Origin: a virus
Taxonomy: Duplodnaviria; Heunggongvirae; Uroviricota; Caudoviricetes
DNA length: 9,403 nucleotides
Virus record (IMG/VR): IMGVR_UViG_2531839146_000012
Strand: one strand, 5' to 3'
Positions 1 through 9,403 of the stretch are shown piece by piece. Under the pieces are notes generated by a model. The model saw only the letters and a list, made by a program, of their open reading frames with translations. It did no database searches and was not told where the DNA came from. How positions within the stretch are numbered: the first letter of the stretch is position 1; each line of letters begins with the position of its first letter. Made by a program: the position numbers and the translations under genes.

Positions 1-395
<395 letters not shown>

Positions 396-404
396 ATCAC
401 CAGT

Positions 405-449
405 AGGCGCATAACACATCCAGCGATCAAAGATGTGTTTATGCGCCTG
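405..449. other. Long inverted repeat / stem-loop between the two convergent small ORFs
   Basis: AGGCGCATAACACATC (405-420) pairs with GATGTGTTTATGCGCCT (433-449) across an 11-12 nt loop. No flanking T-run on either strand, so not a canonical intrinsic terminator. Confidence 0.4.
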
Positions 450-461
450 ATAGTGAAATTA

Positions 462-620
462 TTAAAGTCGTTTAGTTAACATCGCCATTGCTTGAGCAAT
501 AATTGCAACAGCGTCCATCTCTTCACTGGAAGCGATGCAAATGCGGTAACTAATAGCCACAATGAATACATCAATAACGAGAAAGTGAATAGTGTGAAGA
601 TGTTTTGAAAGTAAATGCAT
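462..620 (-). CDS. Small hydrophobic hypothetical protein (52 aa), below the ORF-track cutoff
   Basis: Minus-strand ATG (620-618) with GGAGG 5 nt upstream (complement of CCTCC 626-630); translation MHLLSKHLHTIHFLVIDVFIVAISYRICIASSEEMDAVAIIAQAMAMLTKRL; stop at 464-462. One predicted hydrophobic helix. Confidence 0.3.
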   Translation of the reverse strand: MHLLSKHLHTIHFLVIDVFIVAISYRICIASSEEMDAVAIIAQAMAMLTKRL

Positions 621-713
621 AACTTCCTCCGGTTTTGGGATAGGAGGATTAGAACATGCATTAAATGATGTTGCAAGAATGGCAATTTACCCTAATAGTC
701 TACTATTCACCTC

Positions 714-744
714 AATCTACGTCAACCAATATTTGATGTAGATT
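714..744. promoter_or_regulatory. Near-perfect 12-bp inverted repeat (AATCTACGTCAA-N7-TTGATGTAGATT), operator-like
   Basis: Arms at 714-725 and 733-744 with one mismatch, read directly from the sequence. Confidence 0.3.
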
Positions 745-1014
745 TAATTTTCTTTTAAAAACAATATGTTGTTATTTGTTGAATTTTGGGGTTAGGTTGT
801 TTTTTGAACGTTTTCATCAAGTGTAAAGATACGTTTAGCCTTCATAGTGAGTTCAGTTACTGTCTTTTTCTCTGAAATCGGCGCAAACGTGATCATCGCT
901 TGAGGTTGCTGCTCTTACTTCTCAAATTGTGATGGAGAACGATAAAGGTTAGAGGGCACTTTTATTTTTTTAAGCAAGTGTATAGCATAAGAATAATCTA
1001 AAAAGGGAGGTTAT

Positions 1015-1566
1015 ATGCGCAGGTCTGCATTTGTGAGGATGATGATTTTTACAACGTTGTTTGTAGGGGGAACTTCTACCGCAGTTGCTAAAAACTGCAA
1101 AAAAGGAATACCTTGTGGTAACTCGTGTATAGCTGTTGGTAAGACGTGCCGGATTGGCTCTTATGCCCCTTCATCTTATAAAAATCATTCATACTCTTAT
1201 CCTTCATCCTCTATTCGAAGCTCGCAATCAAATAATTCACGAAAAACTGAAGGAGTGAAAACGACTCCTGCTGCCAAAAATTATCTTTGCCAATACTCTA
1301 TTGCATCAATCGAAAACGGACGTTTAGGGGCATTACGTGTTCAGGGATACGCACAAGTAACTTTATATGCAGATAGCTTCAAGGCTAACAGATTAAATGG
1401 AACATATTTGATATCGCCAAAACTGAATGCTAACGGCAAGTTTATGATGGCAGATGATAAAAGCAAGGTTTATGCTTATGATTCTTGGCTATTAAATTTT
1501 GCAATAAGCGATCGTATCACAAGAACGACAGAACAATGGGATCGATGTAAGCTCAATCAAAAATAA
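1015..1566 (+). CDS. Secreted cysteine-rich hypothetical protein (183 aa) with Sec-type signal peptide
   Basis: GGAGG-containing RBS (1005-1010) before ATG 1015. N-terminus MRRSAFVRMMIFTTLFVGGTSTAVA looks like a signal peptide (basic n-region, hydrophobic core, AVA cleavage motif), followed by a 4-Cys cluster CKKGIPCGNSCIAVGKTC, a Ser/Tyr-rich linker and a C-terminal domain with two more Cys. Confidence 0.75.
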   Translation: MRRSAFVRMMIFTTLFVGGTSTAVAKNCKKGIPCGNSCIAVGKTCRIGSYAPSSYKNHSYSYPSSSIRSSQSNNSRKTEGVKTTPAAKNYLCQYSIASIENGRLGALRVQGYAQVTLYADSFKANRLNGTYLISPKLNANGKFMMADDKSKVYAYDSWLLNFAISDRITRTTEQWDRCKLNQK

Positions 1567-1584
1567 CAGTTAGAGAAGCTCTTG

Positions 1585-1641
1585 TAGAGGCATTATTGAG
1601 TTATTGGTTTTAATATTTTTGTGCCTCTATGGGCTTTTTTT
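1585..1641 (+). terminator. Putative terminator region after the secreted-protein gene
   Basis: TAGAGGCA (1585-1592) pairs with TGCCTCTA (1622-1629), followed by GGGC and a 7-T run (1635-1641). The loop is long, so the structure is non-canonical. Confidence 0.35.
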
Positions 1642-1798
1642 GCCTTTTTGCAAAGTAGGAGAGAGCACAGGAATCGTTAAAATTAATTATTGGGGTATTT
1701 AAGGTTATTTTCAGGTGGTTTAAGGGTATTAAACTTGATTTAATTGATTAAAATATAAACAGATAGTCCTGTATCTTATTGATTTATAAGGTTATTTT

Positions 1799-1855
1799 TA
1801 AATAAAGGTAAATAAAAAATAAATAGCCATAAATAGCTATAAATACATCTAAATA
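1799..1855. repeat. Six TAAATA motifs at 10-11 bp (helical) phasing
   Basis: TAAATA starts at 1799, 1809, 1820, 1830, 1840 and 1850. Confidence 0.6.
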
Positions 1856-2275
1856 CCTTTATCCCTTCCCTTATGGCTAGATTGCGAGAAGTGCTTAACG
1901 CGATTTTCAGCGCCCCCCGATCTGGAAAATCCAGAATCCCCAAATATCAGCAAGGAATTTTCTTGCGTAATCAACATCGTTTTTACCTATTAAATCATCA
2001 CACAGAAAGCCTTTCTGTAATGTCTCTCACTAAACTTTCACTAAACACGAGAATGATCGGTTTTATGTCGGATCAGATGCTAGAAACAGCACCACGTCTC
2101 ACAAGGGCTGTAAGCGATGAAACCAGTGTTTATGCGGGTGCAGGTCAAAATATGGGCCAAAATCCATTTAACATAATAATCGTAATATGCACTAAGGAAC
2201 ACATAGAACGCCTTGAATTGATGTATCAGGGGAAAAGTGATGGATTTTTTACGTAGGAGCACGAGAGGGCTTCTG

Positions 2276-2303
2276 TTGACTTTTGTGTGCTATGAAATAT
2301 AAT
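2276..2303 (+). promoter_or_regulatory. Putative sigma70 promoter firing into the repeat region
   Basis: -35 TTGACT (2276-2281), 16-bp spacer, -10 TATAAT (2298-2303). No ORF follows. Confidence 0.4.
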
Positions 2304-2337
2304 TAAAGGTTTTTTGTTTTTATCGTGTGATGTAGTG

Positions 2338-2780
2338 GATTACACAGGGGGATAGATTAAATGGTGTTCTGTTTATACAGGTTTATTTGTTAGATCAACA
2401 ATTTGGCATTTCTAAACAGATGTTTGAACGTTGCCAAATGTATTGACAACACAAGAAAAGGGCTTGCTATGCCACGCATTACACGGAATAAGGCTGTAAA
2501 AACAAAATAAATTTTAAAATTTGCACAAACGAGAAAACTCGTTCAGAAACAAGCAGAACAATTTTTAGCCAACAATTTCTGATGGTGCTCTGTAAACCGC
2601 ATTACACAAGGCTTTGCGAAAGTGATGTAAAAGTGAAGAAAGCTAACATTGCACTTTGAAGCCATTTTTCATTGGATTTTTTAGTAGGGAATTACACAGG
2701 GAATAGAGAGCATTATTCTATGATTTACACAGGGAATATAGGGGATTATGGCACACACATAGAAAGGCATTACACAGAGT
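2338..2780 (+). repeat. Dispersed direct repeats of G(C/G)ATTACAC(A/G)GG (iteron-like), six copies
   Basis: ATTACAC cores at 2339, 2478, 2601, 2691, 2769 and a TTTACAC variant at 2724, each preceded by G(G/C/A) and followed by (A/G)(G/A)G. Confidence 0.6.
2401..2439. promoter_or_regulatory. Nested imperfect palindrome ATTTGGCA...AAACA-GA-TGTTT...TGCCAAAT, operator-like
   Basis: Outer arms 2401-2408 and 2432-2439 are exact reverse complements; an inner palindrome AAACAGATGTTT lies between them. A TTGACA at 2443-2448 follows. Confidence 0.35.
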
Positions 2781-2808
2781 GAGTGCTATGTGATGATTGG
2801 TAGTAACG

Positions 2809-2843
2809 GTAGGTCACTGTGAGCTACCCCCACAGAATTCTGT
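2809..2843. repeat. Isolated copy of the 22-bp repeat core (GGTAGGTCACTGTGAGCTA) followed by CCCCC and a perfect 12-bp palindrome ACAGAATTCTGT
   Basis: 2809-2827 matches the tandem unit at 3028-3135; the palindrome at 2832-2843 is flanked by TACCCC on both sides. Confidence 0.5.
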
Positions 2844-2883
2844 TACCCCTATCAAGTCTGATACCCGATAAGTATAAATAACA

Positions 2884-2981
2884 CCTAGGAAATGATTTCC
2901 GATCTATTTAGGAAGTAACCTAGGAAGTGGTTTCCTACCTACTTAGGAAATGAGTTCCTACCTACCTAGGAAATGAGTTCC
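2884..2981. repeat. Four CCTAGG-GGAAAT-G-A(T/G)TTCC palindromic sites, the last three at 23-bp pitch
   Basis: GGAAATGATTTCC at 2888-2900 is a perfect odd-length palindrome; GGAAGTGGTTTCC at 2923-2935; GGAAATGAGTTCC at 2946-2958 and 2969-2981. Confidence 0.6.
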
Positions 2982-3006
2982 ACCAATACTATAATTAAAT
3001 AATATA

Positions 3007-3022
3007 AATAATATTCTTTATA
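3007..3022. repeat. Exact 16-bp direct repeat AATAATATTCTTTATA, left copy; right copy at 3184-3199
   Basis: Identical 16-mers at 3007-3022 and 3184-3199 bracket the 22-bp tandem array and its AT-rich flank; both continue with similar (C)TATAT sequence. Confidence 0.55.
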
Positions 3023-3027
3023 CTATA

Positions 3028-3135
3028 TAGCTCACTGTGAACTAGGGGGGGTAGTTCACTATGAGCTAGGGGGTAGGTCATAGTGAGCTAGGGGGTAGGT
3101 CATAGTGAGCTAGGGGGTAGGTCACTGTGAACTAC
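3028..3135. repeat. Five tandem 22-bp repeats (unit about TAGGTCATAGTGAGCTAGGGGG), each with a palindromic TCAC-N-GTGA core
   Basis: Units start near 3028, 3050, 3074, 3096 and 3118 with 22-bp period; the first unit is in inverted orientation (AGCTCACTGTGAACTAG). Followed by an AT-rich stretch with (TA)6 at about 3203-3214. Confidence 0.65.
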
Positions 3136-3324
3136 AATAAGACTATTAATAAAACTATATTAGATTATTAATTAGATCATAATAATAATATTCTTTATAT
3201 CTATATATATATATGATCTTTTGCCTTCCGGCGTTAGCTTCACTCTCTGGCAAGCAGCCTTACTCCGCTACCTTTCGGGCTTCGTGGCTGGCCCGTTCCG
3301 CTCACACCGAAAGCAAAGCGTTAC

Positions 3325-3366
3325 TTTCTTCGTGTAACTATCGTGGCGGTAACGCCCACGAAGAAA
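3325..3366 (+). other. Stable hairpin with GNRA-type tetraloop (GGCG-GTAA-CGCC) nested in a 9-bp outer stem
   Basis: TTTCTTCGTG (3325-3334) pairs with CACGAAGAAA (3357-3366); inner GGCGGTAACGCC at 3345-3356. Sits in a locally GC-richer segment (about 3216-3420). Confidence 0.35.
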
Positions 3367-3600
3367 TACTATTGCGCTGTGCGCAGTAAGAGTAATCACC
3401 TAACCAATCATACTGATTGCTTATGTGTTAACTCTCTCTACTCTTAATTACCCTCCTACATATAATAACTCTGTTATTCTCTGTAGTTGTGTAATTACTC
3501 GAAGAGAGAGCGGCTAAAGCTCAATTACACTCTGCTTTCCTCGTGTAATTTCACTAAGCCTCAATACAATTCCACTTCCTACTTCTGTAGTCGTGTAATT
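3330..3600 (-). repeat. Inverted copies of the ATTACAC motif (CGTGTAAT) plus a 20-bp direct repeat CT(C/T)CTGTAGT(T/C)GTGTAATT
   Basis: GTGTAAT at 3489-3495, 3543-3549 and 3593-3599; GTGTAAC variant at 3333-3339; one direct ATTACAC at 3524-3530. The 20-mers at 3479-3498 and 3582-3600 are near-identical. Confidence 0.5.
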
Positions 3601-3640
3601 GTTTTCGGTGGAAAAGCCAGAGGCGACACCGAAAGAGAAT

Positions 3641-3710
3641 TCTGATCTTATTAATCTTATCTATCTTAGTTAATCTTCTTACTTATCTTACTTTATCTAC
3701 TTTATTATTA
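3641..3710. repeat. Pyrimidine-rich cluster of TTATCT / ATCTT motifs (AGATAA on the minus strand)
   Basis: TTATCT at 3657-3662, 3683-3688 and 3693-3698, plus several ATCT variants. Confidence 0.4.
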
Positions 3711-4220
3711 ATAATAGCTTTATAAGCTCTCTGACGCAAGAAACAGCATTCAGGAAGGGAATCACCTTAGAAAAGGTGTTCTTTGCGTCATAATGTGTTT
3801 TATGAGGGATTCAGAGGTGTTTCATAACAGGAATGTATAGAGGATACTTTAGGTAATTAAAAATAAGGGGTCTAAATGCTTCTCTAACAGCATTAAGCAG
3901 GGTAGGGAATGGAAACGCATTGCCTACACATATAGGCTCACTACAGAGCTTTACAGAGCGTTTTATAAAGTGACTCTCTATCTTATATCTACCATCACCT
4001 TTTCATATACCTAACAAATACAAAATAAGCCCCTTAAATAAGCCTCTGGCGAGCTAAACAGCCATTAGATAAGGGAATGTATTGCTTTTATCAAAATCTC
4101 GTTAGAACGCGTTTTAGAGCGTTTTAGACAATAATGAAGAATAGCACTACACAGAAGAGCACGAATAGCTAAGAAAAAATGTAAGTACATGAAAAAGATC
4201 AGATTTTTTGTGAAAAGGTA

Positions 4221-4249
4221 TTGACAAATGTTTCTTTATATGTAATAAT
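4221..4249 (+). promoter_or_regulatory. Putative sigma70 promoter of the early operon
   Basis: -35 TTGACA (4221-4226), 17-bp spacer, extended -10 TGtAATAAT (4241-4249). It lies about 110 nt upstream of the first gene. Confidence 0.5.
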
Positions 4250-4359
4250 AGGTATTAGAGGGACAGAAAAACATTCTTCTCTAAATAATCAAAATCAATG
4301 CACTTTGAAGCCGTCAGGCTTGCAAGGTGTTTTTCTTTTAACTGAATAAGGAGTTTTTT

Positions 4360-4548
4360 ATGAAATGGTTTACCCCGGAGCACGTCATCTCGGCATTTAA
4401 AAAAGGTGAGCTTACACGCCATCAAGTAGTAATGAATCGTAATATGGCAAGGAGTCGAGGTTATCCAGAGCGAGCAGCTTGCTTCAATGAAGCACTCAAG
4501 ATTATTGATGAATTAAGAAAAAATGAAAAAGAATCTGAAACAGAGTAA
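4360..4548 (+). CDS. Small hypothetical protein (62 aa), first gene of the early operon
   Basis: AAGGAG RBS at 4348-4353, 6-nt spacer, ATG 4360. No family recognised. Confidence 0.6.
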   Translation: MKWFTPEHVISAFKKGELTRHQVVMNRNMARSRGYPERAACFNEALKIIDELRKNEKESETE

Positions 4549-4567
4549 AGAATAGAAGGAGAAAACT

Positions 4568-4735
4568 ATGAGCGAAACCAAGAAACCAATTCCGCGCACT
4601 TACCTACACGTTGACCCTGAAATCTTCAAGGTTTTATTTGCTGAAGCCAAGAAAAGGCAAATTATGGTCAGTGATTTGATGTTAGAAATCATTACTGAAG
4701 CAGCAGAGAACATCAAACAAAAAAAGGGTAAGTGA
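4568..4735 (+). CDS. Ribbon-helix-helix (CopG/Arc/MetJ-like) DNA-binding protein, 55 aa; below the ORF-track cutoff
   Basis: AAGGAG at 4555-4560, ATG 4568, stop TGA 4733-4735. Translation MSETKKPIPRTYLHVDPEIFKVLFAEAKKRQIMVSDLMLEIITEAAENIKQKKGK fits a beta-strand / helix / helix layout typical of RHH proteins. Confidence 0.55.
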   Translation: MSETKKPIPRTYLHVDPEIFKVLFAEAKKRQIMVSDLMLEIITEAAENIKQKKGK

Positions 4736-4786
4736 TCCTCATTCACTTTAGTAGCGCATTAAGCGTGATTTATAAGGAGATTTTTA

Positions 4787-5479
4787 ATGATTAATCAACT
4801 AACTTTTACAAAACACTATGACACGTTTGATAATGTATCAAAGATTTATTCTGATAAATTCCCTCAAGGAAAAGATTTAGATCTATTACATATTGTGCTT
4901 TATTTTCGATTCCTTAGTTATCAGGAAAACAACCTTAATTGTTATGAAAGTCACGAAACATTAGCTAAGATTTTTAAGTCTTCAGCGTCAACAATTAAAC
5001 GTAAGATAAACGATCTTAAAGAGATGGGATTATTAGAAACATCCCCACATCCTGATCCGTATATTTCATCTTTGATTTACAATGCTCTCCCTCTCACAGA
5101 TGCACATATTACTCCCCCAGGAGAATCATCACTCTCTGATCTTTCTGAGGCAGAAGAAGCACAGGAACAACCTAAAGGCCATAAACAGCCTTCTTTTGAT
5201 GTTCTTGATGATGATTGGGATGCGCCTTTACCGTGGGAGACGGAAGAAACACCTGTTTCATCAAGTGAAAAGGTAGCTAATGATAATGAGGAGGATGTGT
5301 TAGAGAATTTTGCCTCTCTTATCATCCGGGAGAAACACAGAAGAACAGGAGGATCATCATTTATAGACTTTGCAAATTCACTGGCTTATAGACACGGGCT
5401 AAAACGACCAAATGGTATTGAGGCATATTTTGCTAAGAAACATCCCAAAGTATATGAAGACTTTGATATTCCATTTTAA
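4787..5479 (+). CDS. Winged-HTH protein (HTH_36 / replisome-organizer-like N-domain), acidic linker, C-terminus ending EDFDIPF
   Basis: AAGGAG at 4774-4779, ATG 4787. The N-terminal ...CYESHETLAKIFKSSASTIKRKINDLKEMGLLE matches the usual winged-HTH pattern of phage/plasmid replication organizers. An acidic low-complexity linker (DDDWDAPLPWETEE...) follows; the last residues are YEDFDIPF, stop 5477-5479. Confidence 0.8.
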   Translation: MINQLTFTKHYDTFDNVSKIYSDKFPQGKDLDLLHIVLYFRFLSYQENNLNCYESHETLAKIFKSSASTIKRKINDLKEMGLLETSPHPDPYISSLIYNALPLTDAHITPPGESSLSDLSEAEEAQEQPKGHKQPSFDVLDDDWDAPLPWETEETPVSSSEKVANDNEEDVLENFASLIIREKHRRTGGSSFIDFANSLAYRHGLKRPNGIEAYFAKKHPKVYEDFDIPF

Positions 5480-5490
5480 TAAGGAGGGTT

Positions 5491-5769
5491 ATGATTCAAT
5501 ATTTAGTAAAAAATCAAGTAGACAGAATTCAGTGTAATGACACAGGAAAACGCATCTATGAAACACTTGCTTACCTCTATAAAGGAAAGCCAACACCGCT
5601 AAAATATAGCGATGTGTTACATCGAGCAGGGTGCTCTGAAGATGGTTTAAAATTCTGGCTGAAACAGCTATCAAATTTCGGTGTTATTGAGATTAAAGAA
5701 TTATCTTTCTCTACATTCAATCTCAAAAGACTAAATAGAGAAATAGACTTCATCTATTCCACTCTCTAA
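5491..5769 (+). CDS. Small hypothetical protein (92 aa), possible winged-HTH
   Basis: AAGGAGGG RBS at 5481-5488, ATG 5491; tightly packed after the previous gene. Confidence 0.7.
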   Translation: MIQYLVKNQVDRIQCNDTGKRIYETLAYLYKGKPTPLKYSDVLHRAGCSEDGLKFWLKQLSNFGVIEIKELSFSTFNLKRLNREIDFIYSTL

Positions 5770-5898
5770 AATCTCTCTATGTAATTAAAATATAAAAGGA
5801 AAACATTATTATGATAGTAGCTATGTATTGGTTATTGTTCTTTCTCACGTTAGAAACATATTTCGGGGTGTTTTCCTTTAAAAGAAAAGGAAAAGTAA

Positions 5899-6309
5899 AT
5901 GGCAAAAAGAAAAAACAACGTTGTTAAGAAGATCGGTGATTCAGCTTCTCTTCTAAGTAAACCTAAATCTATTCTAAGACGTAAAGACTTTAAAGAGCTA
6001 GTTACGCTCTCCAAGCAAAATAGCGCCCCTGGCGAATGGAAAACAGAGATCATAGAACATTCTCCCTCTGTGCCTTGTGGAGATGAATTTAACGCCTTAC
6101 AAGAAATCTTATCTTCAACACCTGGCGTATTCTGGAAACCTAGAAAAAGAAAAGAGTATATTGTTGATAGCTCTGATTTACGCAAATACCAGATTTTAGG
6201 ATTTGAAGACTACAACCACTACGTCGGTTATCTCGCCACAAATGGCCTAAATAATTTAGTTCCTGAATTCCAAATTTTAGATAATGCAGATCACTATGGA
6301 GACTTTTAA
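5899..6309 (+). CDS. Hypothetical protein (136 aa) with Lys/Arg-rich N-terminus, ending ...HYGDF
   Basis: Purine-rich RBS (AAAGGAAAAG) before ATG 5899. N-terminus MAKRKNNVVKKIGDSASLLSKPKSILRRKDFKEL. Confidence 0.65.
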   Translation: MAKRKNNVVKKIGDSASLLSKPKSILRRKDFKELVTLSKQNSAPGEWKTEIIEHSPSVPCGDEFNALQEILSSTPGVFWKPRKRKEYIVDSSDLRKYQILGFEDYNHYVGYLATNGLNNLVPEFQILDNADHYGDF

Positions 6310-6310
6310 T

Positions 6311-6649
6311 ATGAACAAAAACACGTATGACACAATTTACTCACTAATTAATTATTATGAGGATGATTACCTCCTGCCTTTAAACCGCGCTGAACTTGAA
6401 GCATACAAAGAAAACACGCCAGCGGCACTAAATGAGGCGTTTAAACACTGGGATTTAGCTGTGAATGCCTTTGAGCACCTCTCTAAGCGTGTAGAGATGC
6501 TCTGTAAGCGTGAGAACGCATATCTAACAGCGGATCAGCTATTTGAGCTATCAAACTGGATAGAAGGTATTGAATCGGACGTTCGCTATGTGGGAGATGG
6601 CCTTGTCGAACTAGCTCAACGCTTAGGCGCTACTATCACAGAAGAATAA
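6311..6649 (+). CDS. Acidic hypothetical protein (112 aa)
   Basis: GGAG at 6298-6301 then ATG 6311. The track start at 6284 would overlap the upstream gene and lacks an RBS. About 21 Asp/Glu versus 10 Lys/Arg by count. Confidence 0.7.
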   Translation: MNKNTYDTIYSLINYYEDDYLLPLNRAELEAYKENTPAALNEAFKHWDLAVNAFEHLSKRVEMLCKRENAYLTADQLFELSNWIEGIESDVRYVGDGLVELAQRLGATITEE

Positions 6650-6678
6650 AAAAAGCAACAAAAAAGTTGTAAAATATC

Positions 6679-6707
6679 TTGACATTTCATATATTGTATG
6701 TTAATAT
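6679..6707 (+). promoter_or_regulatory. Strong sigma70-like promoter ahead of the late genes
   Basis: -35 TTGACA (6679-6684), 17-bp spacer, -10 TAATAT (6702-6707). Confidence 0.6.
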
Positions 6708-6714
6708 AATTATA

Positions 6715-6932
6715 TAGGGTGATTATTTTTCCTTTATTGGTTCGATATTAAAAATTCTTCTTGTCGTTAAAGGGGAGTAAAATCTCCGCTCCCCGCTTCT
6801 CCTCCTTAAGTAATACTGTGTCATTATTACCTCTTTCCTTTGTTATGCATACATCTTGGAGTGTGCATAACATAGGGTAATTACATAGGTACAAGTTAAT
6901 AAAAGGCGGCTTTAAATGCTGCCTTTTATTTT
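6715..6932 (+). ncRNA. Candidate roughly 220-nt leader / small RNA from the promoter to the intrinsic terminator; no ORF
   Basis: Promoter at 6679-6707 and terminator at 6901-6932 with no ORF over 11 codons between them. Alternative hairpins GGGGAG...CTCC...CTCCCC (6772-6794) and a 9-bp stem TGTTATGCA / TGCATAACA (6841-6849 / 6865-6873). Confidence 0.35.
6901..6932 (+). terminator. Rho-independent terminator
   Basis: Stem AAGGCGGC (6903-6910) / GCTGCCTT (6918-6925, one G-U pair), loop TTTAAAT, then TTATTTT. Confidence 0.6.
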
Positions 6933-6994
6933 GCCCGTTATGCAACTTAAAAGTTGTATTTCTTACTTTAAACAAGGTAACAAGGTTTATATAA

Positions 6995-7207
6995 ATGTTG
7001 TTCTTAAATGATAAAGAGCAAATCATCAAGTATCGCGATGAAATGCTAAAGATCAATCCACAAATTACCGAAATGGTAGCTAAATACGCTGGGTGTTCTG
7101 TCGAGGAAGTAGAAAGATGTGTTGAAAAATATTTTTCTCCTTCTTCTCCGTCTACACCTTCCCTTAATGAATTAATCAAATTAAAAGCTAAGGAGATTAC
7201 TAAATGA
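6995..7207 (+). CDS. Small hypothetical protein (70 aa), first late gene
   Basis: ATG 6995 with a weak AAGG RBS; its stop overlaps the next start (ATGA at 7204-7207), suggesting translational coupling. Confidence 0.5.
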   Translation: MLFLNDKEQIIKYRDEMLKINPQITEMVAKYAGCSVEEVERCVEKYFSPSSPSTPSLNELIKLKAKEITK

Positions 7208-7566
7208 TTATTGATTTAGACACTCTGTTTCCAGTTCGAAAGACTTTCACAGATATTGTAAGTTATTGTACTGATCCGTTTGCCTCTGTAGAAAGCAAGG
7301 TTTTTGCTTCTCTTCCTGCTGATGTTGAGTGCGGAGACTTGATCACCAGCACTGGCGCTAAATATGAATCAGGAGATGATATCTATGTTGTTATGAGTGA
7401 ATTTGTAACGGCTGGAGCAAACAAGCCTGTAGATGTGCTACGTAGCAATGCTGGGCTTGTATGCATCAAAGCTGATGCCCTGAATGCTGTAAGTGAAGCA
7501 GCAAAAGCAGCATTAATTAAAAAAGGCTTTCAGCTTGAAGGGTTCCATTCTGTTTTCACTTCTTAA
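7204..7566 (+). CDS. Hypothetical protein (120 aa) immediately upstream of the capsid homolog; possible head accessory (decoration or scaffold-like), unproven
   Basis: AAGGAG at 7191-7196, ATG 7204. The accessory-protein role is suggested by position only. Confidence 0.7.
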   Translation: MIIDLDTLFPVRKTFTDIVSYCTDPFASVESKVFASLPADVECGDLITSTGAKYESGDDIYVVMSEFVTAGANKPVDVLRSNAGLVCIKADALNAVSEAAKAALIKKGFQLEGFHSVFTS

Positions 7567-7584
7567 TAAAAGGAATAATAATAA

Positions 7585-8613
7585 ATGATTCTAGGTAATG
7601 ATTACGTTGATTTAGCTCCTCTGTTCTCTGCGCATAGCACTAGAAATTATCTGCTTTCTACTCTTGATTTTACGGATTCTGTAGGGGTTACATCTCATAA
7701 AGTGGCTGTTAGCCAACTGGTGGAAACTAACGAATCTCTGTTCAACAAAGAAACCTCTCGTTTCTCTTCTGAACATAACGTGACTAAGCGTGAACAAGGT
7801 AAAGAATATCTGATTGAAATCCCGTACTTTTTAAGGGAAGACCTGATCAAACCGCAGGACGTGCAAGGCAAACGTAAACCTGGCACTGATTTTCAGGAAA
7901 CACTCACTGATATTTATGCTGACTATGTTGCTAAACACAATGTTGCATTCCAGCGTACAAAAGAGAGCGTGTTGGCGGCTTCTTTGTTCTCTGGCAAAAC
8001 TTACACGCCTAAAACTGATGATGTTCTTATCGAATGGGGCAAGCTGTTTAACGTATCAGCTATGAAAGCCACTGTGAACGCTTCCAGCACTGACACCACG
8101 AAGATTTTTAAAGAATTTGATCAGATTGCTACTGACATTATCGAGAAAGCACAAAGCCAGGCGGCTGCTGTAGAGCGTATTGTTGTTTTCTGTAAGCCGG
8201 AAGCCTTCTCTGCAATTCGATTCTCTGCTGGTATGGCAAACGCATTCCAGTATGTAAGCCCACTGGAAGAGGGGAACGTTGTGTATCAGCGTCGTGACCT
8301 GCTGCCAGGGGTGACAGCGTTCACTATTCCAGGAACTAACATTGATGTTATTAAACTGGTAGATCCGCTACACCTGGCACATATGACCGCAGACGCTGTA
8401 GCGATTCCGAAGTTTGCTAAAGGCTCTAACGTATATCAGAACATCTACGGGGCTGCTTCCAGCACTTTTGAACTGATTAATGCCGATCCTACTGAGGTCT
8501 ATAGCTACAGCTATGAATCTTCTCGTGGTGATGCTGTGAACGTTGTTACAGAGAATAGCCAGATGGTTGTTAACCACGGTGTAGGCTTCTCCGTTCAAAT
8601 CACTGTTAAATAA
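7585..8613 (+). CDS. Putative phage major capsid protein, T7 gp10-like (342 aa)
   Basis: AAAAGGA RBS, ATG 7585. By eye, the segment AVERIVVFCKPEAFSAIRFSAGMANAFQYVSPLEEGNV aligns with T7 gp10 ...ADRVFYCDPDSYSAILAALMPNAANYAALIDPEKGSI (shared R, C-x-P, SAI, M-x-NA-x-x-Y, P-x-E-x-G) at a similar position in a protein of near-identical length (342 vs 345 aa; T7 sequence from memory). Followed by a strong terminator. Confidence 0.6.
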   Translation: MILGNDYVDLAPLFSAHSTRNYLLSTLDFTDSVGVTSHKVAVSQLVETNESLFNKETSRFSSEHNVTKREQGKEYLIEIPYFLREDLIKPQDVQGKRKPGTDFQETLTDIYADYVAKHNVAFQRTKESVLAASLFSGKTYTPKTDDVLIEWGKLFNVSAMKATVNASSTDTTKIFKEFDQIATDIIEKAQSQAAAVERIVVFCKPEAFSAIRFSAGMANAFQYVSPLEEGNVVYQRRDLLPGVTAFTIPGTNIDVIKLVDPLHLAHMTADAVAIPKFAKGSNVYQNIYGAASSTFELINADPTEVYSYSYESSRGDAVNVVTENSQMVVNHGVGFSVQITVK

Positions 8614-8630
8614 TATTTAACGTGTAATAG

Positions 8631-8664
8631 AGGCGTGGCGTGTATTCACGCTTCGCCTTTTTTT
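8631..8664 (+). terminator. Rho-independent terminator after the capsid-like gene
   Basis: AGGCG-TG-GCGTG / loop TATT / CACGC-TT-CGCCT, followed by a 7-T run (8658-8664). Confidence 0.7.
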
Positions 8665-8698
8665 ATTTATTTTTTAAATTTTGAGAGGTGATTAAAAT

Positions 8699-8902
8699 AT
8701 GGAAGTGATTCTGAAATCAAAAAATGGTGTACACGTACATTTAGATGCTAATGATTCTAGAGGATTGTTAAATCTGAAATATCTATGTTCTCTCCTAGAT
8801 GTTCCATATGAAGGAGTAAAAGCCCGTATGTTCAGACTAAACGAGAGTATTGATCAAGCTCTACACCATTTCTTAAGCAAAGAAGGTGATAAAAATGATT
8901 AA
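8699..8902 (+). CDS. Small hypothetical protein (67 aa)
   Basis: AGAGG RBS, ATG 8699, stop 8900-8902. Confidence 0.5.
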   Translation: MEVILKSKNGVHVHLDANDSRGLLNLKYLCSLLDVPYEGVKARMFRLNESIDQALHHFLSKEGDKND

Positions 8903-8916
8903 TAAGGGGATTTTAA

Positions 8917-9183
8917 ATGTTAGAAATTAACACTTCTAAAATTAAGAACACAGTTACATTTAGTGTAGATAAAGACAGCTTGAAAAAAGCGAAAGACTCT
9001 ATTACAGGCTTAAAGGAATTCGCAGAAAACATCAAGCCAGCTAAATTAAGGTTTGATAATGTCACTAAAGGCTATAAGAAAGCACAAAGTGAAGTAGATA
9101 AGATTACTAAAAAGCAAGCCCAGGCTGATAAAGCTAATGCTAAAGCACAATTAGCCGCTCAACGTGTAGTTGCAAGAGGGTAA
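8917..9183 (+). pseudogene. Lys/Ala/Gln-rich (coiled-coil-like) protein gene truncated by the IS1 insertion
   Basis: AAGGGGA RBS, ATG 8917. The frame runs into the IS1 terminal inverted repeat starting at 9179, and the stop TAA (9181-9183) is supplied by the IS1 end GGTAATGAC. Translation ends ...AQLAAQRVVARG. Confidence 0.5.
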
Positions 9184-9403
9184 TGACTCCAACTTATTGA
9201 TAGTGTTTTATGTTCAGATAATGCCCGATGACTTTGTCATGCAGCTCCACCGATTTTGAGAACGACAGCGACTTCCGTCCCAGCCGTGCCAGGTGCTGCC
9301 TCAGATTCAGGTTATGCCGCTCAATTCGCTGCGTATATCGCTTGCTGATTACGTGCAGCTTTCCCTTCAGGCGGGATTCATACAGCGGCCAGCCATCCGT
9401 CAT
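9179..9403 (-). mobile_element. IS1 right end (partial; continues beyond the window)
   Basis: 9179 onward reads GGTAATGACTCCAACTTATTGATAGTGTTTTATGTTCAG..., the reverse complement of the canonical IS1 right terminus including the GGTAATGACTCCAACTTATTGAT inverted repeat. Confidence 0.9.
9194..9403 (-). CDS. insB: IS1 transposase InsB, C-terminal fragment
   Basis: Track [72 protein letters not shown] is the recognisable C-terminus of IS1 InsB; stop at 9196-9194. Confidence 0.9.

Follow-up and report, generated by a model that had tools for sequence, protein, structure and literature searches.

Single-strand initiation (ssi) or primosome-assembly sites flank some plasmid origins, and in the IncQ oriV (RSF1010) iterons are followed by an AT-rich stretch and then by the conserved ssiA and ssiB hairpins. 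ColE1 RNA II and the lambda ori are precedents for RNA or transcription acting at an origin. We analyzed a 9,403-nt stretch of viral DNA (IMG/VR record IMGVR_UViG_2531839146_000012; hereafter the window, meaning the whole stretch), in which palindromic repeats and an AT-rich stretch are followed by what sequence comparison identifies as a conserved non-coding structured module of about 200 nt (approximately 3221-3420), probably continuing rightwards past 3420. The module is conserved, its helices covary, it keeps its position relative to the neighboring origin, it is independent of the type of replication (Rep) protein encoded by the island that carries it, and it is free of coding constraint. 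Our preferred, still tentative reading is that the module may be the Rep-independent, cis-acting part of a lambda-like origin, functioning as a folded + strand and serving as a host priming or helicase-loading signal. The active form would be single-stranded DNA rather than a transcript, and its partner a host factor.

The original prediction for this segment described a sharp local rise in GC content against an AT-rich background. This was borne out, with a GC fraction of 0.512 at 3216-3420 compared to 0.113 in the preceding 80 bases (3136-3215), 0.38 at 3421-3620 and 0.377 in the whole window. It also placed here a stable nested hairpin with a GNRA loop, which we recovered with stems exactly as described:

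3325-3366, + strand: hairpin with an outer 10-bp stem (UUUCUUCGUG/CACGAAGAAA) and an inner stem GGCG-GUAA-CGCC.

With a free energy of -17.7 kcal/mol (z = -4.12), the hairpin folded more stably than any of 200 shuffled sequences. The entire segment likewise folded better than its shuffles, both under RNA parameters (z = -2.9 on the + strand and -3.3 on the - strand) and under DNA parameters (z = -3.95 and -5.66, respectively). The decamer ACACCGAAAG, claimed to occur twice, was found at 3304-3313 and 3626-3635, the second copy lying one base from the position first given (3625-3634). By our own arithmetic, chance alone should give about 40 pairs of repeated 10-mers in 9.4 kb, and other variants of the element keep neither copy; on this sequence comparison we treat the repeat as chance or type-specific, and as no meaningful feature. 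A P4-like seqA/seqC pairing system built on the decamer was rejected, given its lack of conservation and of conserved antisense targets.

To sample the element, 5426 complete E. coli genomes were searched with a query of 241 bases around the finding. The results showed that the element is present in 437 of these genomes (~8%), on chromosomes only; identity was 95-100% for almost all copies, and in 421 of them the match extends over most of the query. Blastn with the element detected no similar sequence among 72,556 plasmids (PLSDB) or 50,697 phage records, and blastn of the iteron region against the phage collection gave no match. Divergent copies were supplied by two low-identity E. coli hits (L004 and L005) and by a capsid-anchored scan of species genomes (Escherichia sp. 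L006 and Citrobacter L013). Closer capsid alignment yielded eight loci, only two of which carried the element. A metagenome scan with the core pattern gave 23 loci, and an IMG/VR scan with the core pattern gave nine contigs, which look like the same islands called as prophages; an exact-pattern scan of IMG/VR with the window-type hairpin found none. A protein search with the Rep-like protein returned near-identical E. coli copies only and added no diversity. Genomes and metagenomes together provided about 19 distinct element sequences. Positions 3113-3386 were identical across four islands, whose non-coding regions elsewhere were 91-98% identical to that of the window; by these alignments, no other part of the non-coding region is as well conserved as the segment.

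The module has a two-part layout, in which a near-invariant 5′ domain of about 85 nt is followed by a 3′ domain that is variable in sequence and constant in architecture. The order within the 3′ domain is a small, often GCAA-capped hairpin, a three-way junction (P3 with arms H5 and H6), an optional H7, H8 and H9. In the window these parts lie as follows:

3221-3305, + strand: 5′ domain, almost invariant in sequence.
3221-3225 with 3249-3253, + strand: P1, UUGCC/GGCAA, proposed from RNAalifold.
3255-3259 with 3286-3290, + strand: P2, CAGCC/GGCUG, proposed from RNAalifold.
3271-3278, + strand: small internal hairpin inside P2, CC-UUUC-GG, proposed from RNAalifold.
3306-3324, + strand: variable linker, replaced in other variants by a small GCAA-capped hairpin (AGC-GCAA-GCU or AC-GCAA-GU).
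3325-3334 with 3357-3366, + strand: P3, the outer junction helix, lengthened to 10 bp in the window.
About 3335-3344, + strand: H5, a vestigial arm in the window, reduced by a 1-nt deletion and intact in L006 and L036.
3345-3356, + strand: H6 arm, the GUAA-capped stem GGCG-GUAA-CGCC.
3372-3386, + strand: hairpin H8, UU-GCGC-UGU-GCGC-AG, with a core (GCGCUGUGCGC) that is invariant wherever present.
3405-3419, + strand: hairpin H9, CAAUCA-UAC-UGAUUG, kept through compensatory changes.

The hairpin at 3325-3366 is, in the modeled structure, the window's version of the conserved three-way junction. Within the 5′ domain, the window, L004 and L005 agree at every position of 3247-3284, where other variants differ at one to three positions (A/U, C/U or U/A); beyond substitutions, the domain varies by two 1-nt indels only. 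In P1, the fifth position pairs as C-G in 8 variants and as U.G in 6, and one variant has G.G there. The two pairs flanking the H8 core vary (U.G, U-A or C-G), and the H9 hairpin survives a 2-nt deletion in L048 and L052. We rejected GCGC-UGU-GCGC as an intrinsic terminator, a U-tract being conserved on neither strand. A metagenomic copy (L036, 5315-5518) is a recombinant within the 5′ domain, both of its ends being window-type and its centre (GGGCTACGTTGGCTGGCCTCG) of the other type; its H6 loop is AUAA in place of GUAA.

A covariance model, R1, was built from four sequences of one subtype and comprises 23 pairs. R1 recovered every variant, with the window matching at 3294-3388. Across 16 distinct aligned sequences, 98.9% of cells formed standard pairs compared to 81.8% after shuffling, and 13 of the 23 modeled pairs changed on both sides. 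The covariation score was 0.305 versus 0.102 for shuffled data, with 0 of 500 shuffles reaching the observed score, and it was at most 0.037 when partners were slid by 1-3 columns. The three junction helices showed double changes in 11 of 13 pairs, with 98-100% of cells pairing. P3 occurs as GUGCAA/UUGCAC, GUGCC/GGCAC or UCGUGC/GCACGA, H5 as UGGC/GCCA, AGGC/GCCU or AAAC/GUUU, and H6 as CCG/CGG, UGAC/GUCA, CUGAC/GUCAG or GGCG/CGCC. Outside the R1 statistics, H9 and the two-pair extension of H8 vary compatibly as well. As expected in general of a structured element, helices held by compensatory substitutions are well supported by this alignment, and the pairing of the originally predicted hairpin is among those conserved across homologs.

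The tested helices contain 15 wobble pairs on the + strand and 1 on the - strand, and the + strand loops are GUAA, GUGA, GAGA and GCAA. Because of the wobble asymmetry, the C-G/U.G alternation in P1 and these loops, the functional single strand is probably the + strand. Folding energy alone was discarded as a strand call, since it was lower on the - strand in every variant, whereas the wobble counts favor the + strand; the lower energies probably reflect the G-richness of the - strand.

The module adjoins a set of features that together resemble an iteron origin:

2883-2981: iteron array A, three 23-bp units with the palindrome TAGGAA-N5-TTCCTA, followed by an AT-rich stretch.
3028-3134: iteron array B, five 22-bp units with the palindrome TAGNTCA-N3-TGARCTA and GGGGG separators, the array nearest the element.
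3136-3215: AT-rich stretch, GC 0.11, with GATC at 3175-3178 and 3215-3218, ending where the element begins.
4787-5479, + strand: Rep-like protein of 230 aa with a winged-helix helix-turn-helix (Pfam HTH_36 at 2.9e-5, 24.2 bits, just below the curated cut-off of 25).

In every variant read, palindromic repeats, an AT-rich stretch and the element follow each other in the same order and the same orientation, and the element starts ~80-110 nt to the right of the last iteron. Most variants have two or three GATC sites in the AT-rich stretch between the last iteron and the element. The Rep-like protein matches PHROG replication-initiation and O-like families, down to 1.9e-9. We compared iterons and Rep at 12 loci (8 iteron types). 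The iteron type nearest the element was found to track the N-terminal 110 aa of Rep, which were 77-90% identical where the iterons match and at most 56% identical where they differ. The sequences hold both initiator-matched repeats and an adjoining AT-rich stretch, and from this we infer that the repeats are iterons and that they form, with the AT-rich stretch, the lambda-like origin of the island. Array B presumably contains the binding sites of the Rep-like protein, which would be the initiator acting on that array, and 3136-3215 is presumably the DNA-unwinding element. L006 pairs a window-type module (98.5% identical) with iterons and Rep of the L013 (Citrobacter) type; because of this pairing, we conclude that the element behaves as a module independent of Rep type, lying on the right flank of the putative origin.

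Array A is absent from L001, an island otherwise 96% identical, and is therefore a separable module. The two AT-rich stretches have a common 31-mer (2992-3022 and 3169-3199). Upstream of the Rep-matched array, islands have between two and four kinds of palindromic iteron (e.g. L003, 9420-9940), and these extra arrays could be spare origins, incompatibility determinants or decoys. Two viral contigs, L042 (6390-6540, reverse strand) and L047 (5720-5880), carry iterons GGTAGTTCA-N-TGAACTAGGGG that are very like array B and are followed by an AT-rich stretch ((TA)n in L042). Flanks read by eye place these iterons apparently within a replication gene, a lambda-type layout. Boxes of the form ATTACACA were considered as DnaA boxes and dropped, having only 6/9 matches as judged by eye.

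Under our preferred reading, Rep would bind the four to five palindromic iterons and open the AT/GATC-rich stretch, after which the + strand of the module would fold into the 5′ domain, three-way junction and hairpins and be recognized by a conserved host factor. The folded module could then act as an ssi- or primosome-assembly-like priming or helicase-loading signal, and a primer laid at the module would lead to leftward leading-strand synthesis, with DnaB moving rightwards. A host-read cis signal appears the best fit because the module is invariant despite diverged island proteins, has a fixed place and orientation, folds as a single strand, and no helicase loader or primase was recognized in the island.

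Several observations weigh against this reading. The alignment behind the covariation counts was fitted to model R1, and its ~16 variants are related and recombining (e.g. L036), not independent lineages; the 5′ domain is too invariant to test its proposed pairings. Three-way junctions and GNRA-type loops such as the four listed above are more typical of RNAs. GNRA-like loops are stable in DNA hairpins too, and the G4 origin sequence contains a GNRA-like CGAAAG loop. A near-consensus sigma-70 promoter (TTGACT-16-TATAAT, 2276-2303) points towards the element. Local alignment of the module with the phiX174 primosome-assembly site and the G4 origin gave chance-level scores of 8-12, where shuffled sequences averaged 8.5-9.8 and peaked at 12-19; since these classes of site are defined by function, an ssi-like role is compatible with such scores. 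Finally, the Buttiauxella/Kluyvera relatives L008 (4620-6150) and L010 (4500-5990), with capsids 64% identical and a 485-aa replication protein replacing Rep, have neither the palindromic iterons nor the 5′ domain, so the module is not universal in the wider island family. L008 and L010 keep GTGCAA-hairpin (box-hairpin) units and a TCGCT(A/T)CGCTCAC motif.

The main rival reading, possible and in our judgment doubtful, is that the module is instead a structured non-coding RNA (ncRNA) of at least 200 nt from the + strand, acting in cis at the origin (as a primer, through an R-loop or by transcriptional activation) or in trans on a target in the host or a helper phage. The covarying helices, including the three-way junction, the GNRA and GCAA loops, the wobble pairs (15 on + versus 1 on -), the GC enrichment over the AT-rich background and the promoter at 2276-2303 are all in keeping with such an RNA, and RNA-based prophage origins have precedent in mycobacteriophages (PMC7157519). 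The promoter itself lies directly after a 127-codon open reading frame (ORF) and faces into the left, non-coding arm. Transcription from it may cross the origin, and read-through of the module is then possible. Other results argue against the ncRNA. An Rfam 15 scan, suggested with the original prediction and run on the whole window at E ≤ 5 and on 3130-3720 at E ≤ 10, matched no family near its gathering score even at these relaxed thresholds; the only matches, to miRNA and snoRNA families, were at chance level (12-17 bits versus gathering scores of 80-85), and none overlapped the conserved core. Consensus scans of 15 variants found no conserved sigma-70 promoter or intrinsic terminator at the element's borders, the only conserved promoter being that of the downstream operon. 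Some AT-rich stretches have -10-like hexamers overlapping the last iteron, those of the L004/L014/L023 type have no -35/-10 match at all, and no U-tract follows any hairpin of the element. In these sequences the module thus has no conserved promoter and terminator of its own, as a stand-alone small RNA (sRNA) gene would, and this fits a DNA-level role. For the trans version, no conserved antisense targets of at least 9 nt were found between the 5′ domain and the island (7 variants), and a trans-acting RNA would not need a fixed place beside the unwinding stretch. A literature search on the sRNAs of enterohemorrhagic E. coli, e.g. Esr41 (in OI-43), found nothing relevant to the element. The original prediction had offered a choice between a structured RNA and a remnant of foreign sequence. 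The structured nucleic acid is upheld by covarying helices in ~16 variants; that it is an RNA is only a possibility, since Rfam gave no match, neither a promoter nor a terminator is conserved, and a folded single strand of DNA suits the data just as well.

More doubtful still is the proposal that the module, perhaps with the hairpin units to ~3640, represents a new large structured RNA family of undescribed, capsid-encoding phage satellites. The accompanying suggestion, that such an RNA would prime or activate the origin or engage a conserved host or helper factor and so stay unchanged across Rep/iteron swaps, we rate just as doubtful.

We consider it unlikely that the module is a duplex DNA site bound by protein, whether a packaging (pac/cos-like) signal for a helper terminase or a nucleoprotein platform, with the hairpin potential as a by-product of palindromic half-sites. 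Such a site would account for a 5′ domain whose primary sequence is conserved without needing structure and for the many hairpins that are perfect palindromes with 3-nt loops (e.g. GCGC-TGT-GCGC), and a helper-recognized packaging site must exist somewhere because no terminase was recognized among the island proteins scanned. However, the nested junction arms covary while their sequences are replaced outright, which is unexpected for half-site spacers, and the wobble asymmetry favors one folded strand. Since the 50,697 phage records contain nothing similar, the module is not a copied helper pac/cos site.

A protein-coding explanation is very improbable. It concerns one frame:

3213-3389, + strand: 58-codon open frame (ATG at 3213, TAA at 3389), the hypothetical protein WP_001323649.1 in some RefSeq genomes.

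The frame exists as first reported, with only (TA)n ahead of its ATG and no Shine-Dalgarno ribosome-binding site. A 58-aa protein might be made from a leaderless mRNA; its open frame and the RefSeq annotation speak for it. Nevertheless, the 58-aa product has no match in Pfam or PHROG, the ATG occurs in window-type copies only (all other variants read AAAGATC there), and two 1-nt indels fall inside the most conserved stretch of the element. The stop codon is removed by a 1-nt deletion in the near-identical islands L001 and L003, and the second half of the frame, encoding the C-terminal half, overlies covarying helices. Scarcity of A and T in the core is enough to leave every + frame open through it. 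These comparisons effectively exclude the frame as a conserved gene. Least probable of all is that the segment is foreign DNA in decay, or what is left of an old gene, and now functionless. In composition it does stand apart from its flanks, but the supposed foreign remnant is the best-conserved part of an island-native non-coding region, holds a constant place relative to iterons and operon, and persists in diverged variants with compensatory changes.

The window represents a chromosomal island of low GC content, interrupted by IS100 (1-215, the end of istB) and IS1 (9178-9403); owing to this truncation at both ends, it is missing the integrase end seen in L001 and L003. The island spans 216-9177 in the window, 8001-20461 in L001 and 7434-19658 in L003. 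Complete relatives are ~12 kb long and lie at thrW next to yagP/paoD (L001 and L003) or at glyU (L002 and L004). The left end carries variable cargo (a serine or tyrosine recombinase; a TIR protein in L005), followed by 2-3 kb without annotated gene. An operon behind a near-consensus promoter (4221-4249) encodes two small proteins, the 230-aa Rep-like protein, several unknowns and a Phage_cap_E capsid; beyond the window's extent, relatives add a tape-measure-like protein (609 aa), a Dit-like protein (237 aa) and a tyrosine integrase. The capsid family is tiny, with 78 clusters among 1.8 billion representatives. The island family looks like an undescribed, phage-satellite-like type. A literature search turned up neither the island (CP-933I, thrW satellite) nor the core sequence, and the family carrying the module looks under-described.

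Further features of the island were noted around the origin. The right arm beyond the element has more hairpin units on the YGUGYAAU box (3479-3635), and the left arm has five + strand copies of the box ATTACACAGGG (2339-2779). The inverse of ATTACACAGGG, YGTGYAAT, forms the 5′ strands of the right-arm hairpins at 3325-3366, 3479-3510, 3523-3550 and 3602-3635, and the purine skew on one side of the origin mirrors that on the other. At 3732-3790, past the right arm and ahead of the operon promoter, lies an imperfect 19-nt palindrome, TGACGCAAGAAAC...GTTCTTTGCGTCA, around a terminator-like hairpin (3763-3778). In the left part, 1950-2333 corresponds to L002 10356-11032 as a swappable cassette, which in the window holds the 127-codon ORF, without family match, and elsewhere a serine recombinase (L002 and L005) or a small tyrosine recombinase (L004); these recombinases may serve multimer resolution of an episomal form. 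In the operon, 4556-5125 (a 55-aa ORF and the first ~110 Rep-like codons) matches the Justusliebigvirus phages muut and inny with 97-100% DNA identity; in these phages the Rep N-terminal domain heads a 367-aa protein (L039, 4001-4625). This identity suggests a helper link, with these phages as helper candidates, or an exchange of DNA-binding domains. The stretch 8545-8670, immediately downstream of the capsid gene, weakly matched the Rfam family L20_leader (24 bits versus a gathering score of 58.7). We take the match to be an intrinsic terminator, since a GC-rich hairpin and U-tract at ~8633-8665 give most of the matching. A tRNA/tmRNA scan of the window found nothing.

These results describe an unannotated element in ~8% of complete E. 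coli genomes that carries the covariation signature of a functional fold and lies outside the described RNA families. It also serves as a marker of the putative origin in a compact family of islands, of which the phage and plasmid collections searched contain no copy. Should the element be a host-read signal for priming or loading, this would account for the recruitment of the same host replisome by islands whose Rep/iteron pairs are of many kinds; should it be an RNA, it would represent a new class of structured RNA tied to satellite replication. In both cases, it offers a precise, mutable target for studying replication of the island and the phage that mobilizes it.

Among known systems, the IncQ oriV comes close in its layout, with Rep-specific iterons, an AT-rich stretch and then a hairpin module independent of the iterons. 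Unlike IncQ, the island has no recognized plasmid-type primase (RepB′), its module is much larger and contains a three-way junction, and no PLSDB plasmid is similar to it. Sites of the phiX174 and G4 types are comparable as structured single-stranded DNA of 50-140 nt beside origins, with stable GNRA-like loops, and are read by host PriA or DnaG. The lambda ori shares with the island origin its four to five palindromic iterons ~22 bp apart, the AT-rich stretch and the O-like initiator matches; the island origin differs in being non-coding, at a distance of ~1.6 kb upstream of rep, and in having an extra conserved structured flank, and no P-like loader was recognized in the island. ColE1 RNA II and the RNA-based prophage origins (PMC7157519) likewise place structured non-coding sequence next to a replication start, whereas, in contrast to both, the module has no suitably spaced promoter or Rfam match and is accompanied by an initiator protein and iterons. 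The P4 CI RNA and C4 antisense RNA resemble the module as structured elements in the long non-coding leader region of a satellite, but no Rfam family, C4 included, was matched, and the island has no conserved complementary 9-mers (7 variants). A structured module flanking an iteron origin has precedents as a kind; the sequence and fold of this one are new.

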